Assembly (NCBI GenBank): GCA_003402705.1
Contig: QQNF01000004.1
Location: forward strand, 10,877 to 74,876
DNA from: Verrucomicrobiota bacterium
GTDB taxonomy: Bacteria > Verrucomicrobiota > Verrucomicrobiia > Verrucomicrobiales > V1-33
Length of the DNA stretch: 64,000 bases
Reading direction: 5' to 3'
Under the pieces are notes generated by a model. It was not told the DNA's origin, made no database searches, and was given only the letters and a program-made list of their open reading frames with translations. Made by a program: the position numbers and the translations under genes. The stretch's first letter is position 1. The number at the start of each line of letters is the position of its first letter. Below are positions 8,877-45,645 of this stretch, piece after piece.

Positions 8877-11219
8877 TTACTTGGCAGCGAAGCGCTTCTC
8901 GATCGCGCTGAGGCGGGCCTCCAATTCGGCATTCTTGGCCTTCAGTTCGTTGATCTCCTCATCCTTCTGCCGCGTGATCTCCTGGGTCGCGGGGAAGTCG
9001 ATCAGCAGATCAGACCCGCGCTTCGATTGGAGTGCCGCTTTTCCGTCACCAGTTTTCGCCTTCGGGGTGGCTGACTGCCGGGCTTGCGCCGCGAACTTGC
9101 TTTCCAAATCTGCCACCTTCTTCTGGAGCTGGTCCACCTTGGCGCTTTCGCTTTTTAGTTTACTGTCGAGTTCTTGAATCGCTCCGATTCCGGTGGTGAA
9201 GAGTCGGTCATAATCAACACTGAGGAAGTCGTCCACGCGCCGCCCGTAAACAAAGGCCTTCGTGACCGCCTTCTCGGAAGCCACCACGAAGACCGTCGGC
9301 GACAAAACCTCGAGCACCTTGGTTTCCATCATCGTCTCATCGACATAGACCCTCACCCAGTCACCTGCCGCCAGTGCGTGCGGCTTGGCAACCGTCACGC
9401 TAAGGCGTTTTTTCTCAGCATTGTAGAGGTTCTTCACCGCGCGCTGGTAGACATCCGGGAGGAAATTTCGTGAGGTGCTGACCGCTTCCGGGATGACTTT
9501 GCCGACTTCCTGGGCGATGAAGCCTTTACGCACCGCAGTGCCAGCGTGTGCGCTGTCCTTGAGGCGGTAGTCGGTCACTTGCAACCTGTTGATCAGGTCC
9601 AAGTCGCCGCGGGTGGATGATCTGGCGACGATATCCTTGATGCGGTGATCTGACGTGGCCACAAAAGCACTTCCGGCAACTGCACCTTCGGCATAGATGG
9701 TCAAGGGCCAGGTACTATTACCACCATTATATGCTCCATTGGCGGTATATGAATCCGGGTTCCCATTTTGCGGACCACTGCTACTATTGGAGGAACTAGC
9801 GGTCGTATTAGGATTCCAATTCCAGCTACTGGATCCGGCTACGTGCAGCGGGCTCCCCGGGTTAATCGTGCCAATTCCGAGATAACCATTCGAGGCGATG
9901 CGCATTCTTTCATAGCCTGTTTGCCGGAAGATTATCGGCTCATTCGCATCGTCGTAAGTCTCGATGTGGAGGGCGCCATTGTTGTCATCTCCGATGCCGT
10001 AAATCCTCCAAGCATCGTTAGCTGCCATGGTTCCTCCGACCCCACTATCGTCGCCATTTCCGGTGGTAGTGGTGAACCACAGCCCGCCATCCTGGATCGA
10101 TAACTTCCGGGTGGGATTGCTGGTACCGATACCAATATTTCCATCACCAGTAATTCTCATCCGCTCGGCTCCATTGGTGCGGAACTGGACCACCCCATCT
10201 GCGGTGGAATACATCCCGCCGCCTCCGTTGAAAGTATAACCGGGTGCGATCACGTTGCTGCTGGCGTTCAGACCGCCTGCGATATCCAGCTTGTAGGCTG
10301 GACTGCTGGTGCCGATGCCTACATTGCCGTTGCCCTTGATGCGCATGGTTTCGTTGAACGAAGTCGACCTGCCGTAGCCGAAGGCGATGTCGGACCCGGC
10401 AACGTCCGAATGGATCTGCAGGAGACCGGGTTGGATACCGAAGCCGTAGTGGCTACCCAAGTTTGCATAGAGCGAGATCTTGTCGCCCAAAGATGAGGCG
10501 AAATTCAGCGGAAACCCGGGATTCGCCTCGCCGATGCCGACATTGCCGCTGCCGCGATAGACGCTGGAGCCCACGGGAGACCACAAGCCGATGCTGTTGA
10601 AATCAAGCTTCCCGGCGGTGATGGTGTTGTCCGCGATGTCGTTGGCGACGATGCTCGAGTCCGCAATCCGGTTGCTGTCCACGGCACCGGAGGCGATCTT
10701 GGAGTTGGTGACTTGGCCATCTCCCATCATCGCGGTGCTCACGGCTCCGGCAGCCACGTTCTCAGCCACCTTGGCCCGCAGGGCGAAGGCTCCACTGACC
10801 ATCTGCTGGCGGGGGGAAATCTCCAGATCGGCAGCGGCGGTGCCGTCATCCACAGTCACGCCGAGATAGAGGGTCTCGTAGCTGCCGGAGTTGATGATGT
10901 CGCTTAGGGTTTTAAACGGAGTATTGGCCGGAGCGCTCGGGCCGGGCCTGTTGGAGACACCGGTGCCGTTCCCGATCAGCACGCTGAATTCGCCGCCGGA
11001 AATAGTCACCGTCTGCTTTTCCGCATAGAGGGCGGAGCCGTCGCTGGGGACCTTGTAGAGCTGGAAGATAACCGTGCGGTTCACCGGGCTGGTATTGCCG
11101 ATCAGGACTCCGGCGGCATCGGTCACGCGGCCCTGGTAGCTCATCAGGGTGGGCGTGGATTGGGCATGGAGCAGTGGAGCGGCGAGCAGGAGGAAGAGAC
11201 AGCCGAGATTCAGTTTCAT
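8877..11219 (-). CDS. Cassette gene C2: secreted tail-fibre-domain protein with C-terminal S74-type intramolecular chaperone domain (780 aa)
   Basis: Signal peptide MKLNLGCLFLLLAAPLLHA|QS. N-terminal YQGRVTDAAG...PVNRTVIFQLY...GEFSVLIGNG module shared with C1. Repeated N(V/I)GIGT..P..KL motifs. ATSDHRIKDIV...GFIAQEV...DYDRLFTTGIGAIQEL, then a heptad-like helix to the C-terminus. Confidence 0.85.
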   Translation of the reverse strand: MKLNLGCLFLLLAAPLLHAQSTPTLMSYQGRVTDAAGVLIGNTSPVNRTVIFQLYKVPSDGSALYAEKQTVTISGGEFSVLIGNGTGVSNRPGPSAPANTPFKTLSDIINSGSYETLYLGVTVDDGTAAADLEISPRQQMVSGAFALRAKVAENVAAGAVSTAMMGDGQVTNSKIASGAVDSNRIADSSIVANDIADNTITAGKLDFNSIGLWSPVGSSVYRGSGNVGIGEANPGFPLNFASSLGDKISLYANLGSHYGFGIQPGLLQIHSDVAGSDIAFGYGRSTSFNETMRIKGNGNVGIGTSSPAYKLDIAGGLNASSNVIAPGYTFNGGGGMYSTADGVVQFRTNGAERMRITGDGNIGIGTSNPTRKLSIQDGGLWFTTTTGNGDDSGVGGTMAANDAWRIYGIGDDNNGALHIETYDDANEPIIFRQTGYERMRIASNGYLGIGTINPGSPLHVAGSSSWNWNPNTTASSSNSSSGPQNGNPDSYTANGAYNGGNSTWPLTIYAEGAVAGSAFVATSDHRIKDIVARSSTRGDLDLINRLQVTDYRLKDSAHAGTAVRKGFIAQEVGKVIPEAVSTSRNFLPDVYQRAVKNLYNAEKKRLSVTVAKPHALAAGDWVRVYVDETMMETKVLEVLSPTVFVVASEKAVTKAFVYGRRVDDFLSVDYDRLFTTGIGAIQELDSKLKSESAKVDQLQKKVADLESKFAAQARQSATPKAKTGDGKAALQSKRGSDLLIDFPATQEITRQKDEEINELKAKNAELEARLSAIEKRFAAK
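8880..9653 (-). other. Peptidase-S74-like intramolecular chaperone / auto-cleavage domain of C2
   Basis: S-D-x-R-x-K signature (SDHRIK; Ser codon at 9651-9653 minus). Downstream GFIAQEV and AIQEL motifs plus a terminal coiled-coil-like helix, as in endosialidase/tail-spike chaperone domains (family recalled from memory, not searched). Carries a ~80-aa insert (NFLPDVYQ...VYGRRVDDF). Confidence 0.65.
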
Positions 11220-11268: not shown

Positions 11269-12951
11269 TCAGGGATTGGGAACTGTCAGATCGATGGCGG
11301 CGATCTCCGAGACGCGTTGCATGCGGAAGGTCCCACCCACCTTCAGGGCCCGCTTGTGCAGGCCGGAGATGGATTCAAGATAGGTTCCCCCGAACACGGT
11401 GGACCCCCACCCGGCCACGTATTTGCCGTCCGGCGGGGTGGATGTGAAGGTGAACACGCATTTGCGGTTGATGGTGAAACTTTCCTTCCCGTCGGCCAGT
11501 GCCCGACCTTTGGCGTCGAGGTTGTCGTGATCCGGGTGGTAGGTGTGGACAAAGGGATTGGTCGGATCGTTGAAGGGGATCCGTATGGTCCATGAAAGGG
11601 TGGAGCCGGTGGCAATGGAGCCGCTGCCGGTGATGGAGTTGATGGACGTCGGCATTTGGCAGGCGAAGTAGCGGACCGGTTTCAGGTCCGATGCCGAGAA
11701 TCCGAGGACGCGGGACTCGCTGATGCAGATCCCCAGCGGGTTCCCGGGGGTTGACAGCTTCCCGACAAACGCCTGGGACAGCAGCCGGGCTGTTCCGCCG
11801 GAATCCACATGAGCCAGGAAGAGCAGTGGAAACGCCTGGCTCGTGGAGGAGCCGCCGCCGGGCACGGTGCTGTTCACCCTGCTCACTTTGGTGTCCAACA
11901 GCCACAGGCCGGCTGGCGAGCCGGTCTGGCCACTGACCGGCAGGCTGACATCAGACAGTCCCGCGGAATCGGTGACGCGCAGGATGGAGGCGTAGAAGGC
12001 ATCCGCAGCCCCGGTCATCTGGCTGCGGTCGATACCGAAGTCGAGCGTTGTGCGCCCCGAGGCGGCAATGGTGACGGTGAAACTGCCACCCATGGGCGTT
12101 TCGGTGTAGGAATTCGCAGCGGGATCGAAGATCCGCCGGGTCAGCGCCACGCCTCCGGACACCGGTGGCTGGCTCCCGGGCGCGGACTCGGATGCGCCTA
12201 ACGCCACCGTAAGTGTCAGGCTGCTGGTCGAGCGGTTGGTGATGCCGACGCTCATCGCCGTCTGCGTCCGCCCGAAAGCAAGTCCCGCGGAGCTGGCGAC
12301 CTCGTATTCCACCGGAGCGGTGAAGTTGCTGATGGTGGCGACGTTGAACCAGTAGGCCTTGTTCGGGTCCATGGACTCGGAGCCCGGGGCCACGAGCATC
12401 GGATTGCCGGCACCAAGCTCGCCGCCGATGTATTTGTAGATCCGGGACGGCGTGGAAAGCACCGTGGTGCTGGCGGAGGGATAGGAAGCGAAATACCTGC
12501 TCATCTTCGGCGCGCTCGTCGCAGCGGATGGAAAGCCGAGGAAATTCCCCCCGGAAATCAGCCAGGTCGCCAAAGGCGGCTGTACTAACTGCTTGATCGG
12601 CACCGTGACCGCACCGGAGCATCGGATCAGATAGGCGGAATTTCCCACCATCCGAGAGAGCCCCGTCTCGGTGCCATCACGCTTCCAGATCGTCCACTCT
12701 TCGCTGTTGGCCGTGGGGGCGGAGGGAGTCTGGGTGAAGGCGGTCCGGTCAGGATTCGGGTTCCATCGCCACACTTCGGTGACGTCGGTGCTGCCGGAGA
12801 ACAAGCTGGAAACCGTCGTGTAGGACGCATCGCCAGACAGCCAGACGCCATTCCAACCGGCGGCTAGGGAATAGTTTTTGGTGACCCATTGGGCGTGGGC
12901 TCCGCCTGCGAGGAACAGTAAGGCGAGCAGAATCCTGGTCAGGTGTTTCAT
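11269..12951 (-). CDS. Cassette gene B2: secreted protein (560 aa), family unknown
   Basis: Signal peptide MKHLTRILLALLFLAGGAHA|QW. Collinear with B1 (24770..26422). Shared FNDPTNPFVH(T/Q)YHPDHDN block. Start overlaps the A2 stop by ATGA (12948-12951). Confidence 0.9.
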   Translation of the reverse strand: MKHLTRILLALLFLAGGAHAQWVTKNYSLAAGWNGVWLSGDASYTTVSSLFSGSTDVTEVWRWNPNPDRTAFTQTPSAPTANSEEWTIWKRDGTETGLSRMVGNSAYLIRCSGAVTVPIKQLVQPPLATWLISGGNFLGFPSAATSAPKMSRYFASYPSASTTVLSTPSRIYKYIGGELGAGNPMLVAPGSESMDPNKAYWFNVATISNFTAPVEYEVASSAGLAFGRTQTAMSVGITNRSTSSLTLTVALGASESAPGSQPPVSGGVALTRRIFDPAANSYTETPMGGSFTVTIAASGRTTLDFGIDRSQMTGAADAFYASILRVTDSAGLSDVSLPVSGQTGSPAGLWLLDTKVSRVNSTVPGGGSSTSQAFPLLFLAHVDSGGTARLLSQAFVGKLSTPGNPLGICISESRVLGFSASDLKPVRYFACQMPTSINSITGSGSIATGSTLSWTIRIPFNDPTNPFVHTYHPDHDNLDAKGRALADGKESFTINRKCVFTFTSTPPDGKYVAGWGSTVFGGTYLESISGLHKRALKVGGTFRMQRVSEIAAIDLTVPNP

Positions 12952-13799
12952 CGGATTTTGAGGCGGTAGTAAGTGGTAGCGCCGACGCCCTTGGCGTAGA
13001 GGCTGGTGATGCCGGTGTTGGTGGCCACGAGCGAATCCTGAAATCCCGCCGGAGCCGCCCCGGCCGGATCAGCGGTGGAGAACGTGATCGGAGCCCATGT
13101 TTTGAGGTCCGTGGAGGACTCGATGGTGTAGGATTTCCCATAGAGCGCGAACATCTCCATGCGGACGTTTTCCCCGACCTTTTCCTTGATCGCGAGGTTG
13201 ATGGTGGATGTCGCATCCGCGGCGTAAGTCCCGGCGATGTATTCGGTGCCGTTGCTCAGGCCATCCTTGTCGAGATCGCCGTTACGATCCAGCAGCGAAA
13301 GATCCCAACCGTCCGGGCCGGGCAGATAACCGCCTTGATAGAGCTGCGACTCCTCCCATGCGTCGGGAAGACCGTCGCGGTCCGAATCCACTCCCAGCGT
13401 GAGGTCCAGGCGGGTGCGGGATGCGGCGGAGCCCACTGTCGGCGTGCGCGCGCTGATCTCGATCGGATAGTAGTCCGTGCCGCCGACGTTGATCCTCAGC
13501 GTAAAGGCGGAGGCGGTCGAGACGACCAGAGAGCTGTAGTTGTTCGTCAGGCTCCGGCCCATGTCGATCCGCATGCGGAGCTGGTAGTTGTAATCCGCGC
13601 CACTGCCGGTCGTCAGTGCCTCACGCATTTTTTCCACGCCCCCTTGATACATCACCACCGAGGAGCCCTCCGCAGGCAGAAGCACGCCATATTCATCGCG
13701 CACGTCGCCGTAAACCGTGTAGTAAGGTGCCGGTGGGAAGGCCTGCGACATTGAAGCGGCCAGCAACAGCAGAGGCAGGGGTTTTAGGATGGATTTCAT
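12948..13799 (-). CDS. Cassette gene A2: secreted protein (283 aa) with Ca-binding-type Asp repeats and a C-terminal beta-sandwich
   Basis: Track ORF 12948..13868 trimmed to ATG 13797-13799, giving MKSILKPLPLLLLAASMSQA|FPPAPYYTVYGDVRDEYG. DSDRDGLPDAWE and DLDKDGLSNGTEY resemble thrombospondin-type-3 D-x-D-x-D-G repeats. C-terminal YTIESSTDLKTW...YYRLKIR. Confidence 0.85.
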   Translation of the reverse strand: MKSILKPLPLLLLAASMSQAFPPAPYYTVYGDVRDEYGVLLPAEGSSVVMYQGGVEKMREALTTGSGADYNYQLRMRIDMGRSLTNNYSSLVVSTASAFTLRINVGGTDYYPIEISARTPTVGSAASRTRLDLTLGVDSDRDGLPDAWEESQLYQGGYLPGPDGWDLSLLDRNGDLDKDGLSNGTEYIAGTYAADATSTINLAIKEKVGENVRMEMFALYGKSYTIESSTDLKTWAPITFSTADPAGAAPAGFQDSLVATNTGITSLYAKGVGATTYYRLKIR

Positions 13800-13968
13800 T
13801 GCGCCTGGTGGTGAAGTGAAGTGCCGAAGCGAGACGTGTTGTAGGAATAATGTCATACTTCGGTGCATCCTGCATCTGGGTTTTGCCCTGAATATGACCA
13901 GGGGTCACCCCTATGGCGGCGCGGAGCGCGCGCATCCGGTTTGCGGGCAGTAGAATCCTCCGTCTTCA

Positions 13969-16900
13969 TCAGTTCCCTGAGTTCGAATAGGTGCGGAGGA
14001 AGAGTTGGATGTCATTCACGCTCTTGGCGAAGTTGTCCATGCCCAGCTGCTCGTCCTTGAGCAGCGTGATGGCAGGAATAACAATCTTCCACTGGCTGTT
14101 CCAGACGCTGCGGCCGATCAGGCGGGCGTTGGTGAAGGCGATCGGCAGCTCGCCCTCCAGATAGGGGTCGGGAGCATTCGCCACCATCCGGAAGGCCTGG
14201 TGCTTGCGGATCACCCACGGCCGTTCCGCGAAGGTGTCATTCGGGCCGAAGAACTGCGTGGTGTTGAAATCACTGGCTCCCAGGTTGTAGGGCAGCGGCA
14301 GGGCCTGATCGACCACCTGCCAGCTGCGGATCTCCCCGGTGTCGCCCAGCGGCGTGCGCATGAAATCATTGCCGCAGGGAATCAGATAGGCATACGGCGT
14401 CGCACTGAGGGCTCCGTCCGCGGTGGATTCGCCATCGACCATTCCGATATAGCCGGGCAGGGCCAGTCCGACGGCAGCAATCTTGGTGGCGAAGTTGCTC
14501 TGGCTGTAGGCATGGTCTCCGGCGGCGAGATCAAGGCCGAAGAAATTCTTGCCGTCCTCCACGGTGGTGCTGAAGGGAATGATGAAGCCAGGAATCGCGC
14601 TGCCATCGGCTTTCTTCAGTCCCCGGCAATAGGCGGCCACCTGCGGGTCGGACAGGACGTTAGGCACGATGTGCTGCTCCAGCGTCTGCTGCCAGTCCTT
14701 GTCCTCAGCGTCCGTCTCGCCTTCAACATGGGGCAGGATACGGAACAATTCCTGACGCAGCGAGAACAGCGTATTGTAGTGATCCGGATTGTTGATCCCG
14801 AGACGCCCTTCGGCGACCGCAAAGTCCGCGTTGAGCTGGGCCATGGTTCCGGCCAGCCCGGCATCGCCGAGGGTGCTGGTGGTGGCCCGCGGCACGCCGC
14901 CAGTGAGATCCCCGAGCGAGCGGGAGGCGACGAGGCGGTTGATCACCGCTTGTCCCTGCGGGGTGCCGAGCAGCCCGGTTTCATAGTCGTAGCTCTTGGC
15001 CGCCAGGTAGCTGTAGCGCCCCGCGACGTCGAACAAGGTGCGGTATTCCACTAACGCCTCGTTGCGGAAGGTGCGGAAGGTCAGGTCCTTGGTGCGATAG
15101 CCATTGATCACCGCGGCGGCGCGCCGACGCATGGACTCCCGCCGCAGCCGGATCGTCTCCCCGGCCACCCGCAGGTTCTGGATTTTTTGCGTGGCGGTAG
15201 CGTAGGCTGTGGCCAGCTCGGTGAAGCGGGTATGCATCCCGATCAACTCGCGGTAGGTCTGCTCGAACTCATACGCAGCCTGCAGTTCGTCCTGGGTGAA
15301 GCCGAGGCTCATCAGGGTGTTTTCCTTGATGAGTTCCAAGCCTCCGCCCAAAGTCACTTGGAGCAGGCGTGCGGAAGTGTTCGCAGACAATGCGGCACCC
15401 AGCAAAGTTGCTTTGCCGGCTCCCGCCGCGATACGAATCCCGCCCCGGCCAACGGAGGTCACGTCGTTGGCCAAACCAACCGATCTGGGTAGCAATTCCG
15501 CAGCGTCATCGCCAATATTAGAGGTGATGTCCGCAGCCACTGCGGCAGCCTCGCCTAAAGATTCCAGAACCGCCACAGCTGTATTATTTACCACGAGAGC
15601 GGTTCCAATGACCGCCGTCGTCGTTTGCTGGCCTACATGCATAGTGACCAAGCCCTCGAACACCTCCTCTTCCCGATCGAACCGCGCCTTCAAGTTGTCC
15701 AAGTCGTCTTTCGCCGCCAGCAGGGCGAGTTGGGCGAGTTGTGCTTCAACCAGGGCGTCCTGCAGGGCACCGGTGTAGGGCCGCTTGCCTAGCGCGGTGT
15801 CCTTGCCGACCACATCGGCAAACTGCGCCCACTGGTTCGGCGTCACCTGGAAGGTTCTTGTCACGGTATCAAGGATTCCGTCACCGTTCTTATCTCCCCC
15901 TTCATAACTCGTGAAGATGTCGTCAATGGCCCCGCCCGTAAACGTCTGATACTGCACCGCTTGGCGGTAGGTCACGGTGACCGGTTTGGCGGTGTCGATC
16001 CAGTTGAGCGGGCGGTCGATGATGTACCAGCGGTCAAAGTCCGGATCCGCATAACCCTGCGGATAAATTTTCCCTGGCCCGATATCACCGGCGTAGGGGC
16101 TGCCGAAGATGTCCAGAAGCTCCTGCTTATAGGCGGATTCCTCACTCCGAATGGCGCTCTGCTCGTCGCTGACCTGATTCTCCTGGTTCCGCAGCAGACG
16201 GGTCATGGTGGCGGCCTGGTTGAACGAGCCGGCGGCATTGTTCAGCGCTTGCAAGGCCCGCACCGAGACCTGCTCGTAGTGGCTCTTGCCGACCACCGTC
16301 GGATCCGCCAGTTCCTGGCCGAGCGAGTTGTTCCAATACGGGTCGAGGTCGAAGGCGATCGCCCCCGGGGCGAGGCCCAGCGGATTGAGGCGGTCATTGG
16401 CGGAGTCCATGGTCGTCTGGTAGCTGAGCGCCAGGGTGGGCAGCTCGTTGAGTTCCGGCACCGTGGTGCGGTCCACAATCTGCACGCCGCTGTGATTGGG
16501 ATTGTTATCCACATCCGGCAGCATCGCATTGCCAGCGATCCAGTGGAAAAAGGCACCCTGGGTCGAGCGGCTGGCGGTTTCATCGAGGCCCTGATGACGC
16601 ACCACCGTGGTGCGGGAATTGACCTTGCCATCGCGGAACTGCGACCAACCGGCATTCGGATCGTCCTTGTAGTTCTGGCGATGGACCAGACTGAGCACCT
16701 GCTGGGCGGTGCGGCCGACGTTGGCGGCGGCAGCGGCGAATTTCCGCTCATCCTTGTAGTCCACCGACACCGGCACGCCGAGCACCGTCACCGTCTCCGC
16801 GCTGGGAGTCCAGGTGAAATAGGGGTGGGTGAGCAGCTTGTAGTAACCCTTGAGCGCGGTTAGGTAGTGGCCGTAGGCATCGCCATGGCCTTGCGGGAAC

Positions 16901-19900
16901 ATCCGGTAGGCATCGGCGGCGTCCACGATGCCATTGGCAGTGCTCGAGCCGGACTTTTCAGTGATGTTGTAGTTCACGGCGTAGAGCGCCTCCCCGCTGT
17001 TGATGCCGCGGGTGTAGTTCCACCACAGGCGATTGTAAGCGGGGGCCCCCGCCGTGCCCTGGGCATTGAAGTCGTCCCGGCCGCGCAGCAGGGCGAGTTC
17101 CTCATCGAGCGAGTTGGCCACCTGGCCCTCGAAGGCGAAGCGGCTGGTGTTGACCTCGGTCACGCTGTCCTTGTCGTCGACAGAGATCGTTGGATTGGCA
17201 GCATCCGCGTAGGCCTCGTTGCCGAGAATGGTGTAAAGGTCGTTGAGATACCCGGCGGCGAGGATCAGCGCGTTGTTGGTACTCGCGGTGCCGATGCCGG
17301 AGTTGATCGTGAAGCCCTTGCCTCGGTTGAGCACGGTCTCGTAAATCTCGATCAGCCCGGCGTCGTTGATGTTCTCCATGTTGAGGGCAATGTCGCCCTC
17401 CCAGCGGGTGCCGGCCTGGGTCAGCATCGAGACATCCGTGTTGATTGAGTTGCTGTAGAGGTCCGTCATCCGCTGGTTGAACGGCGTGATCTTGGCAAGC
17501 ACGCGCTTGATCCAGCCTTCAACGGGGGACGAGCGAGTCCAGTTCGACCACGCCCCTGCGGGCGTGGTGCCCTGGGCCTTGAGCCGATAGCTCACGGTGA
17601 AATTGACATCTCCCATCAGCACCGCGGGATTGCTGATGACCGCGCTCGGGTCCGCCCCCACCAGGATCGAACCGCCGAGGCTGTAGACCTCAGGATTACC
17701 GGGGGGTTTGGGATCAATCCAGTCGGAGATCGGGGTGCTGTTGTCCAGCGGCAGAATCGGTGCCTGGCCGCTGCTGTCATTGAAGCCATAGCGGTAGCGG
17801 AACTCGAAGTTCTCCGGCTGGCCACCGTAGTCACCGCTGTGGCGCACAGTGACCTTTTCATCGAGCGGGTTGGACGAGAGCAGCACCTTGAGGTCGCCAG
17901 GGTAAAGGTCAGGCACCACCTTGATGATCTGCATTTGCACCGGATCGCCCGGATCCGTGAAGGCCTTGCCGTTGCCGAACACCAGCGTCACATAACCGGT
18001 GCCGGAACCGGTGGAACTCAGCGCATACCCAGCCACCGCCGTGTCCGGATCGGTGATGTCGGAGCGCCCCTTCACCGGGATCGACTGATTCAGCGCGGCG
18101 GCCGCCACATAGGTTCCCGGCACCGTGGTGCTTTCACGGAAAGTCTCCAAGGTGGTGGCAAGCCCGGCGATGGCGGCAACCCAGGCACTCTTGTCGGTTG
18201 AGGCATTCGGGAGGAGTTTCTCGAGATCCTCCACATCCTGATTGCTGAGCTGGTTGAGATTGAAATAATCAAGGGTCGCTTTTTCCTCTACAAACTGGCC
18301 GATGAGCACCAGTTCTTTCTGGACGGCATCGTAGTAGAAGCGGTTCTGCAGGTTGGGCGGGAGGCCCTGGAAGTAGGTTTTGCCAGCGTAGTCGCTCGTC
18401 CGGATCCCCGGGGGCAGCTTGGGCATGGCCGACTTTTTCGCACGGATCGGATCGTGCAAGGCCACCGACGAGGCATTCAACTTCATCGCCATCGATTGCT
18501 GATAAACGATCTGGGCGCTGGTTTGGCCGAGCACTTGAGGCAGGCCATCCATCTGTTTGCCCAGGGTTTGCGCCATCTTCAGCTCCGGAACCACTGTTTG
18601 CTGCGCCACGGGCAGGGACGGATCATCCGGCCACTTGGGCTGATAGGTTAGGGTGACGGAAGAATTCCTGCCATCGAGGACGTCCGCGATGAAGGGCTGG
18701 ATGCTGCCCGCCGCGGGCTGCGCGTTCAGGGCAAAGAATGGAAAATCGAAGTCCGCCCGGTTAGTGTAATAAAACTTCATGCCGAAGGACACCGGTGCAT
18801 CGATTCTCACTTCTGGCGCGGCAGCGTAGCCACTGCCCCTGGTGGTGACCGTGATCGAAGTCACCCCAAAACCGTCGATGTTTCCAGTGGCCGTGGGTGC
18901 GGTGCCGGCGACCAACTCGGTGCCGCCAGAGAAAGTCAGGGTCGGTACCGTGGTGTATCCCGTGCCGTTGTTGGTCATCTGAATACCGGTGACGAAACCA
19001 CTGGTGAGCACCGCCGTGGCTGCGGCACCCGTGCCGCCGCCGCCGCTGATGGCGACAGTGGGTGCCACGGAATAAGTCTTCGTGCCGGAATTGATGGTAA
19101 AGCTGGCGGAGGTGAGTCCGCCAAGGACGGCGGTAGCCGTGGCACGCGTTCCGCCGACGGGCGCAGCCACGGTCACGACGGGCGGGGTCGTATAGCCACT
19201 GCCGTTGGCGGTGACCGCGATCGAAGTCACACAAAAATTGTTATTGTTGCCACTGGCGGTGGGTGCGGTGCCGGCGGCCAGTTGGGTACCGAGGGTGAAG
19301 GCAAGGGACGGTGTCGTGGTATAGCCCGTGCCGTTGTTGACCATCTGAATGCCGGTGACGAGACCGCCGCTGAGAACCGCCGTGGCGGTGGCACCCGTGC
19401 CGCCGCCACCGCTGATCGTGACGGTAGGAGCCACGGAATAAGTTCTGGTGCCAGAATTGATGGTAAAGCTGGCGGAGGTGAGTCCGTCCGCTGTGGCCGC
19501 TGCGGCGGCGCTGGTTTTGGCGTGGGCGCCGCGGAACAAATGATGCGTTCCCTTGCGATCCACGAAAGTGAATTTGTCATAGGCCGTGATGAATGCCGCG
19601 GGAGCTGCGTTGTTTGGGAGCAATGGCAAAGTATCCTTGGCGAGTGGCACTTCTTCATTGCGCACCGACTTGTTAACATCGTCCCGCTTTGGCAGCGGCA
19701 GAAGTGCCAGCGGCATGGGTGGGGTGATCGGCGTGCCGGCGATTTTATTGTAAACCAGCGGATAAGTCTCGGTCGCGCGGACCACCTTGGCCACGCGCAT
19801 CGCCGGACGCTTGTCCGCGGCATCGTTGTATTGCAGCAGGACGAAGGGCTCGGAACTAGTGGCGAGGTTCAGGTCATCGCGCAGAGCAAAGACATTGCCA

Positions 19901-27443: not shown

Positions 27444-27500
27444 TCGACGAACAGGTCAGAATCGTCGACGAACAGGTCAGAATCGTCGACGAACAGGTCA
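27444..27500 (-). promoter_or_regulatory. Three direct repeats at 21-bp spacing: candidate LytTR response-regulator binding sites upstream of the cassette array
   Basis: + strand tcgacgaacaggtca starts at 27444, 27465 and 27486; the first two units are identical over 21 nt. In the direction of transcription each unit reads TGACCTGTTCGTCGA. The core TGTTCGTC resembles the AlgR core CCGTTCGTC (from memory), and 21-bp phasing matches paired LytTR sites (9-bp sites with ~12-bp spacers). The repeats lie 144 bp after the LytTR gene stop and 108 bp before ATG 27336. Confidence 0.55.
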
Positions 27501-27645
27501 CAAAGCCGGAATTCCTCGAAAATCCACGGCTCCCCGCGCGGGAATCTCGTGGGATGGATTTACTGGAGAACCCATCCATTTCCCGAACCGCTGGCTGACT
27601 GCTTGAGGTGCTTGGGTAACCCGGGGCCCGCAGAGCGCGGCGACG

Positions 27646-28440
27646 TTAGAAGGAACCCCTGAGGCGACGGAACTCGATGCGACTCAGCGTCAGCGGCTCC
27701 GCAATGTCGATAAAAAACACCTGGGTTTTCTCGCGGTCGAGCCGGGACACCTGCTGGATCTGCTGGCAGTTGATCAGCAGCCTGCGACTGATCCGGGAAA
27801 AGAGCCCCACCGGCAATCTGGCCTCCCAATGGGAAAGCGTGCTCTTGATCAGGACCGGCTTGCCACCAGCCGCAAGGATGCGCGTGTAATCGCCTTGGCT
27901 CTGGGCGGCGGCGATGCGGCCGGCTTCGACAAAACGCAGATTGCCGCCCTCTTGCAGCGGGACAAGGTCCGCCGCCTCCAGTGGCGTTTCAGGAACCAGA
28001 TGCGGCACCAGGGTAGGACTTGCCGCAACGCCCGCGCCTCGCTGGGAGACTGCCCGCTTGAGACGCTCCACCGTCTGCGCGAGCCGCTCCGGGTGCACCG
28101 GCTTGGTCAGGTAATCAAGGGCATGCACATCGAAAGCCCTTTGCGCATAACGGTCGAAGGCGGTGACAAACACCACCGCCGGAACCGGATCCATGCCCTC
28201 AAGGAGCGGCAGCAGGTCGAACCCATTGTCCGGCGGCATTTGCACATCGAGAAAAATGATCTCCGGCCGGGTCACGGCCACCAGTTCCGCAGCCGACTGC
28301 ACGTTGTCAGCCTCGCCCACGATGACAATTTCCGGATGCCGCTCCAGGCGCTCGCGCAGATGCTGCCGCAGCAACGACTCGTCATCCACCAGAATCGCAC
28401 GGATGGCCCTGGGTGAGATCGTGGCACCGGCGGCGTTCAT
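27646..28440 (-). CDS. LytTR-family two-component response regulator (264 aa)
   Basis: Receiver domain (ILVDDESLLRQHL...IIFLDVQMPPDNGFDLL...VVFVTAFDRYA). C-terminal LytTR-type DNA-binding domain (LRFVEAGRIAAAQSQGDYTRILAAGGKPVLIKSTLSHWEARLP...FSRISRRLLIN). ATGA overlap with the kinase stop. Confidence 0.9.
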   Translation of the reverse strand: MNAAGATISPRAIRAILVDDESLLRQHLRERLERHPEIVIVGEADNVQSAAELVAVTRPEIIFLDVQMPPDNGFDLLPLLEGMDPVPAVVFVTAFDRYAQRAFDVHALDYLTKPVHPERLAQTVERLKRAVSQRGAGVAASPTLVPHLVPETPLEAADLVPLQEGGNLRFVEAGRIAAAQSQGDYTRILAAGGKPVLIKSTLSHWEARLPVGLFSRISRRLLINCQQIQQVSRLDREKTQVFFIDIAEPLTLSRIEFRRLRGSF

Positions 28441-29546
28441 GCGGTTCCGGAACAGGGTAGCGAGACCTGCGCTCTGACCACAGTCGCCGTGTAATCCAGC
28501 GTCAGCTCTGCCTGATCCCCATAGACGAGATGCAGGCGTTTCCTGAGATTAGCGATGCCGAGCCCGGTGGACCCCGATCCGTGCGGCTCCACCCAGCGGC
28601 CGGTGTTCTCCACCATCAGAAGCAGTCTCCCCTCCAATAGCCGCGCCTCAATGGCGATGCGCAGCGGAGGAGGGCTGGTCTTCTGGCCGTATTTGAGAGC
28701 GTTTTCCAGCAGCGGCTGGATCAAGGCCGTTGGTACCAGCGCGGCGCAGGCCTCTTCGCTCACCTCAAGGCGGGTCTCCAGCTTTTCTTGAAAGCGGATC
28801 TTCTCCACCAGCAGATAGTCTTCCAGCGCGGCGACTTCCTGGCCGAGCGGGTGTTGAAACTGATCCTCGGACTCCTGGGCCAGCGAGAAGCGCAGGTAGT
28901 CGGCTAAGGACTGGGTCACCTTGGAAACCATGGCCTCATTCTTCCGCACGGCCATGATGGTGGCCAAGGCATTGAAGAGGAAATGGGGATTCACCTGAGA
29001 GCGGAGCAGCCTTAGCTCGGACTGATGGAACTCCCGCTCGATCTCGGCATGGCGCTTGATGGACTTGATGCCAAAATAGAGCAGCATCCAAATCATGAAA
29101 ATGGCCACCCTGATGAAAAATATCGCAATCCTGGTCTGCCGCGGGACACCGGGGAGTCCGAAGGCGAGAACCATGCGGTCGACCCCCATCAATTCCACAT
29201 AGGAGAGCAGCAGCGAGACGAGGAAAGTCAGAGGAACCAAGAGCCAATGCTTCCCGAAGCGGGCCAATGCCCAGGAGCAGCAGGGCCTCAGCGCCAGCGT
29301 GATCAGGAAACCGTTCACGGGACGCATGATTCCATAACAGAGAATGGACGGATCCGTGATCGAACCAGTCACCCAGAACAGCACAGGGACGAGCGTCATC
29401 AGCCCCCAACCGGCGATCTGCAGCGGCCAGAACGAAAAGAACCCCGAAAGCCACGGGCCCCGTCCCAGCACACTGCCCGGCGGGCCCTTAATCCCATCCC
29501 GCGGCCTCGCCCGCCTTAATACGACTTCCTCGAGTGATGTTCGCAT
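28437..29546 (-). CDS. LytS/YehU-type sensor histidine kinase (369 aa)
   Basis: Hydrophobic N-terminal half with several predicted TM helices. His_kinase motif LRSQVNPHFLFNALATI. HATPase region LIQPLLENALKYG...GLGIANLRKRL. The exact start is uncertain. Confidence 0.85.
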   Translation of the reverse strand: MRTSLEEVVLRRARPRDGIKGPPGSVLGRGPWLSGFFSFWPLQIAGWGLMTLVPVLFWVTGSITDPSILCYGIMRPVNGFLITLALRPCCSWALARFGKHWLLVPLTFLVSLLLSYVELMGVDRMVLAFGLPGVPRQTRIAIFFIRVAIFMIWMLLYFGIKSIKRHAEIEREFHQSELRLLRSQVNPHFLFNALATIMAVRKNEAMVSKVTQSLADYLRFSLAQESEDQFQHPLGQEVAALEDYLLVEKIRFQEKLETRLEVSEEACAALVPTALIQPLLENALKYGQKTSPPPLRIAIEARLLEGRLLLMVENTGRWVEPHGSGSTGLGIANLRKRLHLVYGDQAELTLDYTATVVRAQVSLPCSGTA

Positions 29547-29586
29547 GCCTCATGGAATGGTTAAGGCTGCGTCACGACATAGATGG

Positions 29587-29766
29587 TTATTGATTGCCCT
29601 TGGAAAATAGGCCTCTGACCCGCTTCAATGCGCGCAGTTGCTCCTTCAGACGGGCATTTTCCCCCTCAAACGCCTCAACCCTCTCCACCCGCTGCAATAG
29701 CTGCTTCCCCAGCGCCACCAGTTCCTCGACGGAACAGGAGTCCAAATAATTGAAGTCGACAGCCAT
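29587..29766 (-). CDS. Small coiled-coil ORF (59 aa); possible remnant of an IS66-family transposase leucine-zipper N-terminus
   Basis: Below the track cutoff. MAVDFNYLDSCSVEELVALGKQLLQRVERVEAFEGENARLKEQLRALKRVRGLFSKGNQ*. The ...ENARLKEQL...LF..K pattern recalls the IS66 TnpC N-terminal region (memory only). No transposase body follows. Confidence 0.3.
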   Translation of the reverse strand: MAVDFNYLDSCSVEELVALGKQLLQRVERVEAFEGENARLKEQLRALKRVRGLFSKGNQ

Positions 29767-30057
29767 GCGCCCAGAATACTTAAAAATTCCGGAAAATCTT
29801 TCAGCCGCTAATCAATTACCATAGATGCTCTAAATAAACACCTCTTGAAATTACTGCTATAAACCGGCAATCACAGCACACCACTCAGGGCGTCTCCCAT
29901 CTCCCCTCAGCGCCACCCTTAACTCGCATCCGCCTCCCGGCACATGCTTCGAACCCGCCACCGCCCCGCAGGGACGACCGGCCCACCAACCCCTCTCCGC
30001 ACCCGCTCAACCTCCACCGCTGCTAATTTTCACTTCTCACTCCCCACTTTCCCAAAC

Positions 30058-30134
<77 letters not shown>

Positions 30135-30240
30135 ATTCTCCAGCTCCCGATCGGAAGCTCACCATAAAGATGCCGGATTCCCCCGTCGTGTCAAACCGGG
30201 AATGCCTTGATTCAGGTCCCCGCTTGCTTCCCAAAGGCCC

Positions 30241-45154: not shown

Positions 45155-45645
45155 CCCCAAGAGGCCTGTCCAATTGCACACCAGTGCACACCACACTCCC
45201 CCAAGAGGCCTGTCCAATTGCACACCAGTGTCCCCGCCCCCCAAGAGGCCTGTCTAATTGTTCCCCACGGCAGAGCAGAAGTGCCCTCCCGCCTCTTACC
45301 TCCGCACCAGCACCCCCTCTCACACCCCGCACCTCCCCCCTTCCCCAAGAGGTCTGTCCAGCCCGAAGAGGTCTGTCTAATTGCAGAGAGTGGAACCGGC
45401 GTCCCGCCGCTTACCTCCCAACCAGCACCCCGTCTCCCACGCAGCACTCCCGCCGCACCAACGTCACCCGCATCGCACCCGCCGACTTGTCTCATCTTTG
45501 CGCCATTCACCTCCGACCTGTGTCCCAACGGGACACCTTATCCCAGCCCAGAGCACCGCTCTGGGTACCCCACCGCCCGAGCCCGGCGTTCTGTAGGAAC
45601 GCCGCATACCCTTGCATCCCTTGCCCGAAGAGGTCTGTCCAATTG
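45155..45645. repeat. Cluster of six copies of a ~22-bp motif CCC(C/G)AAGAGG(C/T)CTGTC(C/T)AATTG in a ~650-bp non-coding stretch
   Basis: Copies at 45155-45176, 45199-45220, 45239-45260, 45344-45360 (3'-truncated), 45362-45383 and 45624-45645. Copies 3 and 5 are each followed ~35-40 nt later by a second shared block, cgcc(t/g)cttacctcc(g/c)(c/a)accagcacccc. Confidence 0.85.

Follow-up and report, generated by a model that had tools for sequence, protein, structure and literature searches.

A predicted LytTR-type operator of 21-bp-phased direct repeats in front of a cassette array for giant secreted proteins in a freshwater verrucomicrobium

LytTR operators consist of imperfect 9-bp direct repeats with the consensus [TA][AC][CA]GTTN[AG][TG], which are 12 to 13 bp apart and located just upstream of the −35 site (PMC5600425). 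In a survey of LytTR systems, the spacers were 12 bp long, in a minority 11 or 13 bp, and the repeats mostly ended 10 bp upstream of the −35 site (PMC6193735). The reported distances between repeat and −35 site range from 4 to 11 bp, most often 10 bp (PMC5600425, PMC6193735). Positive autoregulation is a typical layout of these systems, and published LytTR operators diverge, too, from the family consensus (PMC6193735). Operators with three repeats are known from RcoM1 and CoxC (PMC11347149). The sites of AlgR, which have the core CCGTTCGTC, are typically dispersed single sites, often far up- or downstream of the start, and not direct repeats with a 12-bp spacing (PMC4064291). Searches of the literature turned up no study of LytTR systems in Verrucomicrobia.

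A stretch of 64,000 nucleotides of contig QQNF01000004.1 from a Verrucomicrobiota bacterium, in the following called the “window,” contains a LytTR response regulator gene and, next to it, a tract of direct repeats. The original prediction for this stretch had proposed that the repeats are LytTR-type sites tying a kinase/regulator pair to an array of gene cassettes, and it is supported by the conservation of the repeats, their co-occurrence with one regulator clade, their phasing, the distance to the −35 site, and the gene order. Its statements that LytTR regulators bind to 9-bp direct repeats about 12 bp apart and that CCGTTCGTC is the AlgR core agree with the publications cited above (PMC5600425 and PMC6193735 for the former, PMC4064291 for the latter). 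With a probability of about 0.8, these repeats serve as the operator for the LytTR response regulator encoded next to them; they would work like a classic operator of the AgrA/ComE/HdrR type, and the promoter of the first cassette gene, which they precede, would depend on activation. Very probably, this is a new, uncharacterized example of a well-known operator class in an unstudied group of freshwater Verrucomicrobia.

The likeness to the operators of AgrA (P2/P3), ComE, PlnC/D, VirR, FsrA, and HdrR/BrsR comprises the LytTR regulator, a GTT/CTT-containing 9-mer, the 12-bp spacer, the position 10 bp upstream of a weak −35 site, and, in some relatives, copies preceding the operon of the regulator itself. 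In contrast to these operators, the present one is found in a Gram-negative freshwater verrucomicrobium and has giant secreted or surface proteins as its targets instead of bacteriocins, toxins, or competence genes; no peptide pheromone gene was recognized. The conserved unit is also longer, about 13 to 16 nt (TGNCNNNTTCNNC), and its copy number varies from one to three among the relatives.

Regulator, repeats, and promoter

All genes from position 29546 down to position 1 of the window are on the minus strand, starting with a gene for a sensor histidine kinase of the LytS/YehU/AlgZ type (28437..29546, minus strand; 369 aa; Pfam His_kinase PF06580, E = 4.9e-21). It overlaps by 4 nt, as in an operon, with the gene for the response regulator (27646..28440, minus strand; 264 aa), which possesses a receiver domain (Response_reg PF00072, E = 7e-23) and a LytTR domain (PF04397, E = 4e-12). 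The closest curated families of the regulator are BtsR (141 bits, cutoff 246) and LytR (NCBIfam), both below the cutoff, and the receiver residues D19, D20, D65, and K113 are invariant among 12 orthologs. Many orthologs with 60 to 90% identity are found in freshwater Verrucomicrobiaceae, Akkermansiaceae, and Luteolibacter metagenome-assembled genomes (MAGs).

The predicted target, A1 (26419..27336, minus strand), is the first cassette gene and encodes a secreted protein of 305 aa. Homologs from the related loci L004, L005, and L013 align from residue 1, so the ATG at position 27336 is the real start of A1 and the gap between the regulator gene and A1 is 309 bp long. ORF domains and homolog alignment thus show that the regulator stop at 27646, the ATG at 27336, and the gap length had been given correctly.

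The tract in this gap, at positions 27444 to 27500, is a perfect 21-bp tandem repeat with 2.7 copies (TRF: period 21, 2.7 copies, 100% matches, score 114). On the minus strand, from 27500 to 27444, it reads TGACCTGTTCGTCGACGATTC / TGACCTGTTCGTCGACGATTC / TGACCTGTTCGTCGA, followed by TAAAAG. The distal unit 1 (27480..27500, minus strand) is composed of TGACCTGTTCGTCGAC and the spacer GATTC and has a matrix score of 25.9, the middle unit 2 (27459..27479, minus strand) is the same, including the spacer, and the proximal unit 3 (27443..27458, minus strand) is TGACCTGTTCGTCGAT. Exactly three copies of the 15-mer without mismatch occur in the window, and every other copy has at least two mismatches; together with the TRF result, this confirmed three repeats at an exact 21-bp spacing. 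The spacers CGATTC are identical within the tract, too, which indicates a true tandem duplication of a 21-bp unit and not merely three similar cores. For the 36-nt self-matches at a lag of 21, the chance expectation is about 2.5e-16, and no other perfect tandem repeat with a period of 10 to 40 and at least 2.5 copies exists in the 64 kb. TRF also reported a repeat with a 44-bp unit at 45155 to 45260 (2.5 copies, score 163), in a region with a skewed GC content of the strands, and one with an 18/36-bp unit at 23296 to 23381 (4.5/2.2 copies), inside the fiber-like gene C1.

A position-weight matrix was built from 15 distinct half-sites. Scanning the window with this matrix yielded no second paired site (“module”), the gaps at 401 to 463 and 13869 to 13968 included, which agrees with the earlier view that the motif is missing from the other inter-cassette gaps. 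The kinase-regulator operon of the window is also not preceded by a module, according to the same scan.

When read in the LytTR register, the unit is CCNGTTCGT plus a 12-bp spacer, and the 9-mer CCTGTTCGT of the proximal unit ends 10 nt before the hexamer TTGTCT (27431..27436, minus strand), a predicted −35 element. This 9-mer agrees with the LytTR consensus [TA][AC][CA]GTTN[AG][TG] at 6 of the 8 specified positions (GTT, position 2, and positions 8 and 9) and differs at positions 1 and 3. The TTG of the candidate −35 hexamer is conserved in 16/16, 15/16, and 15/16 modules (columns 223 to 225 of the module alignment A2), and the distance of the ATTG just downstream of the proximal repeat is free of indels in the 16 aligned modules. 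A TA dinucleotide is conserved 16 to 17 nt past the TTG (columns 246 and 247; 15/16 and 13/16), which fits a promoter of the form TTGnnn-N16/17-TAnnnn. In the window, the corresponding candidate for a weak −10 hexamer is TACGCG (27408..27413, minus strand), 17 nt after the −35 hexamer; it is poor, and its assignment is tentative. A generic sigma-70 scan found no consensus promoter between 27200 and 27800, an outcome that is compatible with dependence on an activator without counting as evidence for it.

A further conserved box, GAGGAATTCCGGCTTTG (27501..27517, minus strand), adjoins the distal repeat on its upstream side. Its family consensus GRAATYCCGGCCTCG is present in most modules (columns 119 to 137 of alignment A2, with A126 in 15/15, C130 in 16/16, and G132 in 15/16) and is not a degenerate repeat unit. 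The box could be an extra protein contact, a UP-like element, or the site of a second factor.

Downstream, 106 nt separate the proximal repeat from the start of A1. The distance from the proximal repeat to the ATG is 85 to 125 nt in 16 of the 18 module entries not associated with a kinase gene, and it is 241 to 331 nt in front of kinase genes. The first approximately 10 codons past the module (ATGAGCCTyGyyTTGAATTCCCATCC, MSLxLNSHPS; window 27307 to 27336) are conserved in L005, L006, L009, L012, and L013, even where the rest of the downstream protein differs, as in L006 and L009 compared to the A-type proteins. Promoter, leader, and N-terminal codons therefore seem to travel together as a unit; another possibility is that the conserved start stretch represents a leader element or a short ORF upstream.

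In the proposed mechanism, the membrane-bound kinase of the PF06580 type would sense a signal and phosphorylate the regulator, presumably at D65. The LytTR domains of the regulator would bind to the direct repeats [A/C]CCNGTTCGT, as judged from family knowledge and conservation. A period of 21 bp corresponds to two helical turns, so that the repeats face the same side of the DNA. The proximal site, 10 bp upstream of the −35-like TTG, has the usual position from which a LytTR activator should recruit RNA polymerase. Transcription may then proceed into A1-B1-C1-D1 and possibly also into the following cassettes. The third in-phase copy, which in this reading arose by slipped-strand duplication of exactly one 21-bp unit, would provide one more predicted binding site while the promoter distance stays unchanged.

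Conservation of the module and its association with the regulator clade

Orthologous DNA was read at 20 loci (L001 to L014, L201, and L203 to L207), with regulators that were 60 to 90% identical. The motif TGMCCNGTTCGTCGAC occurred as direct repeats in 18 of them, nearly always in two copies 21 bp apart, and L011 and L204 had no module in the locus DNA covered. The spacing of the paired modules was 21 bp throughout, except for a module common to L201 and L203 with 20 bp. The unit has the consensus TG[A/C]CCNGTTCGTCGAC. What survives of it in L012 to L014, the most distant loci with regulators of 60 to 64% identity, is TG.C...TTC..C, positions that are invariant in both half-sites of the alignment of 16 modules. 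Across these 16 modules, the 37-column double repeat has a mean of 1.63 bits per column, compared to 0.89 in the upstream flank and 0.72 in the downstream flank, and the repeats are the best-conserved intergenic DNA at these loci. The motif given in the original prediction was real, but the conserved unit of about 13 to 16 nt is longer than the core stated there; similarly, the expected conservation in orthologous loci was found in 18/20 of them for the motif but with two copies, not the triplet, as the conserved state. Conserved are 16 of the 21 positions of the unit, including the GATTC spacer, a value that may partly reflect a short divergence time because most orthologs are fairly close. 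Real evolutionary depth comes only from L012 to L015.

The controls were 741 kb of DNA around 66 other LytTR regulators, which are at most 49% identical. The only paired hit was on one Chthoniobacterales contig that is represented by two overlapping loci, L015 and L019. Thus, the motif is associated with the regulator clade in 18/20 orthologous versus 2/66 control loci (Fisher p = 2e-14). The Chthoniobacterales contig encodes two LytTR regulators, 47 to 48% identical to that of the window. Its related repeat, CCCGATTCGTCA / CCCAGTTCGTCA (L015, 5850 to 5890), also 21 bp apart, is located between a kinase-regulator operon and a gene for a 185-aa secreted protein. This 21-bp-phased repeat suggests that the TTCGTC-type specificity is older than the Verrucomicrobiaceae clade. 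Metagenome contigs were scanned for the regulon with the pattern GTTCGTCGAC-N11-GTTCGTCGAC, which was too unspecific: nearly all of the 120 matches were unrelated coding repeats on high-GC soil contigs, and true modules were found only in L166 and L180.

The order regulator, repeats, A, and B is kept in L004, L005, L012, L013, and L014, down to 60% regulator identity. The module of other relatives precedes a PATR protein or a giant protein of >3200 aa with cadherin, FG-GAP, and TIG domains. It stays with the target gene in L201 and L203, where a Transposase_31 gene has been inserted behind the regulator gene, and also in L002, where about 190 bp separate the module from the regulator gene. In four loci, L001, L002, L180, and L205, a module also precedes a kinase-regulator operon. 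L001 has one module before and one after a second kinase-regulator pair, in L002 and L205, one module precedes the kinase-regulator operon and another the target gene, and the module of L180 is in front of the kinase gene. Modules at these sites correspond to the positive-autoregulation layout typical of LytTR systems. Between module and kinase gene in L001 and L002, nothing conserved was found that resembles a small pheromone-like ORF. The tolerance to insertions, the second modules, and the conserved order point to a regulated promoter rather than a passenger sequence. Of the properties expected for a LytTR operator, a LytTR regulator at the locus, at least two phased repeats, the distance to a predicted −35 site, and the co-occurrence with the regulator were found, and the agreement with the family consensus was partial.

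The core of the repeats had been called “AlgR-like.” The AlgZ/FimS-AlgR system of Pseudomonas aeruginosa is similar in having a PF06580 kinase and a regulator with receiver and LytTR domains; moreover, GTTCGTC is identical, and CTGTTCGTC of the window matches the AlgR core at 8 of 9 positions. These shared bases are real but a resemblance only. The position of the second C of AlgR is occupied by A, T, or G in the orthologs but in no case by C, the conserved CC is shifted by one base relative to that of AlgR, and the repeats are tightly phased and abut the −35 site, unlike the dispersed sites of AlgR. Considering this variable position, the phased arrangement, and the best match of the regulator to BtsR below the cutoff, the site was not filed as an AlgR site.

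Copy number and rival readings of the repeats

As judged from the relatives, two repeats are the ancestral and prevalent state, and the third copy in the window is a recent slippage duplication, with one of units 1 and 2 as the extra copy. The complete identity of both units, with the spacer included, points to a very recent event. Three copies are also present in L009, where a different unit was duplicated, so that this event was independent of that in the window, and a single copy forms the module upstream of the kinase gene in L205. With one, two, or three identical head-to-tail units among the relatives, the tract is a variable simple tandem repeat, a description that is compatible with the operator reading. 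Direct repeats of 15 to 16 nt, 21 bp apart, are a substrate for slippage, which accounts for the perfect identity in the window, and the duplication leaves the helical phase and the distance between proximal site and promoter unchanged.

The most serious alternative may be that the third copy, and the third copy only, is a selectively neutral product of slippage, with two ancestral functional repeats and “three repeats” as an accident of the strain. Its chances are somewhat below even. The recent origin of the copy, the natural slippage substrate, and the distribution among the relatives, nearly all of which have two repeats, argue for neutrality. The exact helical phase and the preserved distance to the −35 site speak against it, as do the two independent gains, which could point to selection, and the functional triple-repeat LytTR operators that exist elsewhere (PMC11347149), although these points are not decisive. 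RcoM1 of Paraburkholderia and CoxC of Afipia have three evenly phased direct repeats with 12- to 13-bp spacers, as in the window, and theirs are bound by LytTR domains (PMC11347149). Both are, however, one-component CO sensors that combine a PAS or MHYT domain with LytTR, their repeat has the sequence TTCNNGCA or TTNNNGCN, and none of the three copies is dispensable (PMC11347149). The CoxC operator overlaps the −35 site and represses (PMC11347149), whereas the repeats described here are upstream of the −35 site, and the third one is a strain-level duplication of a two-repeat operator. A bolder and rather doubtful extension of the operator reading would be that the whole module, comprising the box, the repeats, the −35 and −10 sites, the leader, and the first approximately 10 codons (MSLxLNSHPS), is a portable, slippage-prone “gain knob.” Such an element would have been recombined in front of many giant surface protein genes of freshwater Verrucomicrobiaceae, namely, those of the A-B-C-D cassettes, the PATR proteins, and the cadherin-repeat giant of >3200 aa, and its one to three repeats would tune or heritably switch the two-component drive of each adhesin set.

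Other readings concern the tract as a whole. The module may be a true cis-regulatory element for another factor, for instance, a dimeric helix-turn-helix protein on TCGTCGACGA, with the adjacency to the LytTR regulator being a coincidence. Indeed, TCGTCGACGA forms a perfect 10-bp palindrome in units 1 and 2, and an additional conserved box is located just upstream. The palindrome is, however, missing in the proximal unit and in all units of L012 to L014, where the direct repeat and its 21-bp phase persist, which argues for a protein that binds to direct repeats. Moreover, the motif tracks the regulator clade in 18/20 loci and precedes kinase-regulator operons, and the related repeat on the Chthoniobacterales contig is located beside a regulator that is only 48% identical. 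Another factor is, therefore, an unlikely explanation. Even less can be said for a random tandem duplication in intergenic DNA without any function, a most improbable origin: the repeat is short, tandem, and perfect, as such a duplication would be, but its two-copy version is conserved in sequence, spacing, and position while the flanks have diverged, and it is found at more than one promoter per locus. A coding origin, in which the tract would encode repeats of seven residues in an A1 protein extended at its N terminus or belong to an 87-aa ORF on the opposite strand, was considered because the ORFs 26419 to 27579 (minus strand) and 27335 to 27598 (plus strand) are both open across the repeat, a metagenome annotation calls a gene for 87 aa at the corresponding site of a contig with 99% identity, and the 21-bp unit is a multiple of 3. 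Among the 17 module instances, none of the frames stays consistently open through the repeats, the frame connecting them with the downstream gene is closed or varies from locus to locus, the downstream proteins align from the ATG at 27336, and the same module precedes unrelated genes. Since the frame is not conserved, this reading has next to no probability and was rejected. The operator reading is preferred over all of these.

A leader RNA or riboswitch in the 309-bp gap was also considered and rejected, with no Rfam family and a fold z of −1.2. As a further observation, the spurious long ORFs on both strands over the operator illustrate that an automatic annotation can mask a regulatory region.

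The cassette array and its surroundings

The array consists of four-gene cassettes, of which two are complete and a third is represented by its start, with paralogs that are 34 to 48% identical. Downstream of A1, cassette 1 continues on the minus strand with B1 (24770 to 26422), the fiber-like C1 (22932 to about 24713), and D1 (13969 to 22755; 2928 aa); all three are ORFs with a paralog in cassette 2, and C1 has a weak Bdello_MAT_N match. B1, C1, and D1 (13969..26422) may be co-transcribed with A1. Cassette 2, assigned by paralogy with cassette 1, contains A2 (12948 to 13868), B2 (11269 to 12951), C2 (8877 to 11219), and D2 (464 to 8932; 2822 aa), all on the minus strand. The start of the third cassette, A3 (1 to 400, minus strand), was recognized from the ORF list and by paralogy. 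Neither cassette 2 nor A3 has a repeat module of its own, as no paired site was found by the matrix scan. The gaps between the cassettes are short, about 100 bp (13869 to 13968) and 63 bp (401 to 463). Promoter and terminator scans of the region from 1 to 30300 gave counts at or below the expectation from shuffled sequences and neither support nor refute a single long transcript. The proposal that the whole 27-kb array may depend on this one promoter draws its support only from the lack of a second module in the window, the short gaps, and the number of predicted terminators, which is no higher than in shuffled sequences.

All cassette products have N termini that resemble signal peptides. The A family has at least 1298 homologs, all of them annotated as “hypothetical” and without a Pfam domain, and an AlphaFold model of A1 based on 21 sequences was too poor for a fold search, with a mean pLDDT of 45. 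For D1, D2, and the B proteins, neither Pfam nor NCBIfam gave a match. A weak match to the N-domain of the “mosaic adhesive trimer” fiber proteins of Bdellovibrio was obtained with the C proteins, and C2 contains a Peptidase_S74 chaperone domain. In the partial A3 (1 to 400), the mature part is almost identical in protein sequence to that of A1 (26900 to 27200), compared to only 48% for A2, which suggests a recent gene conversion or duplication between the first and the third cassette.

The predicted promoter-operator provides a testable regulatory link for a large uncharacterized gene set in abundant, mostly uncultured freshwater Verrucomicrobia, with secreted proteins of 2800 to 2900 aa, fiber-like trimers, and an unannotated 300-aa family with more than 1000 homologs. 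In the form of two copies of TGMCCNGTTCGTCGAC with a 21-bp period, 10 bp from the −35 site, it can be used for regulon scans in MAGs and for the design of EMSA probes and reporters. It may also help to read lake metatranscriptomes for the conditions that induce these surface proteins. The LytTR promoter design, known mostly from Firmicutes and Proteobacteria, would be extended to another phylum, with no new principle involved.

The surroundings of the array show additional peculiarities. Within 29500 to 30200, the GC skew breaks abruptly at a tRNA-Pro(CGG) gene (30058 to 30134, minus strand). Over the kinase/regulator genes and the cassettes, it is about +0.05. In the 34 kb that follow, where ordinary housekeeping genes (AcrB, RecD2, alanine racemase, TGT) are found on both strands, it is −0.3 to −0.47. 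The skew is extreme, and its boundary suggests an island, or a segment that was inverted or acquired, as the nature of the 30-kb cassette region beside the tRNA gene. An AT-rich stretch between the tRNA-Pro and kinase genes (29590 to 29900, minus strand) contains a 58-aa coiled-coil ORF (29764 to 29590), which is possibly the remnant of a mobile element. In the relatives, Transposase_31 genes recurrently adjoin the regulator gene (L201, L203, L204, and L206).
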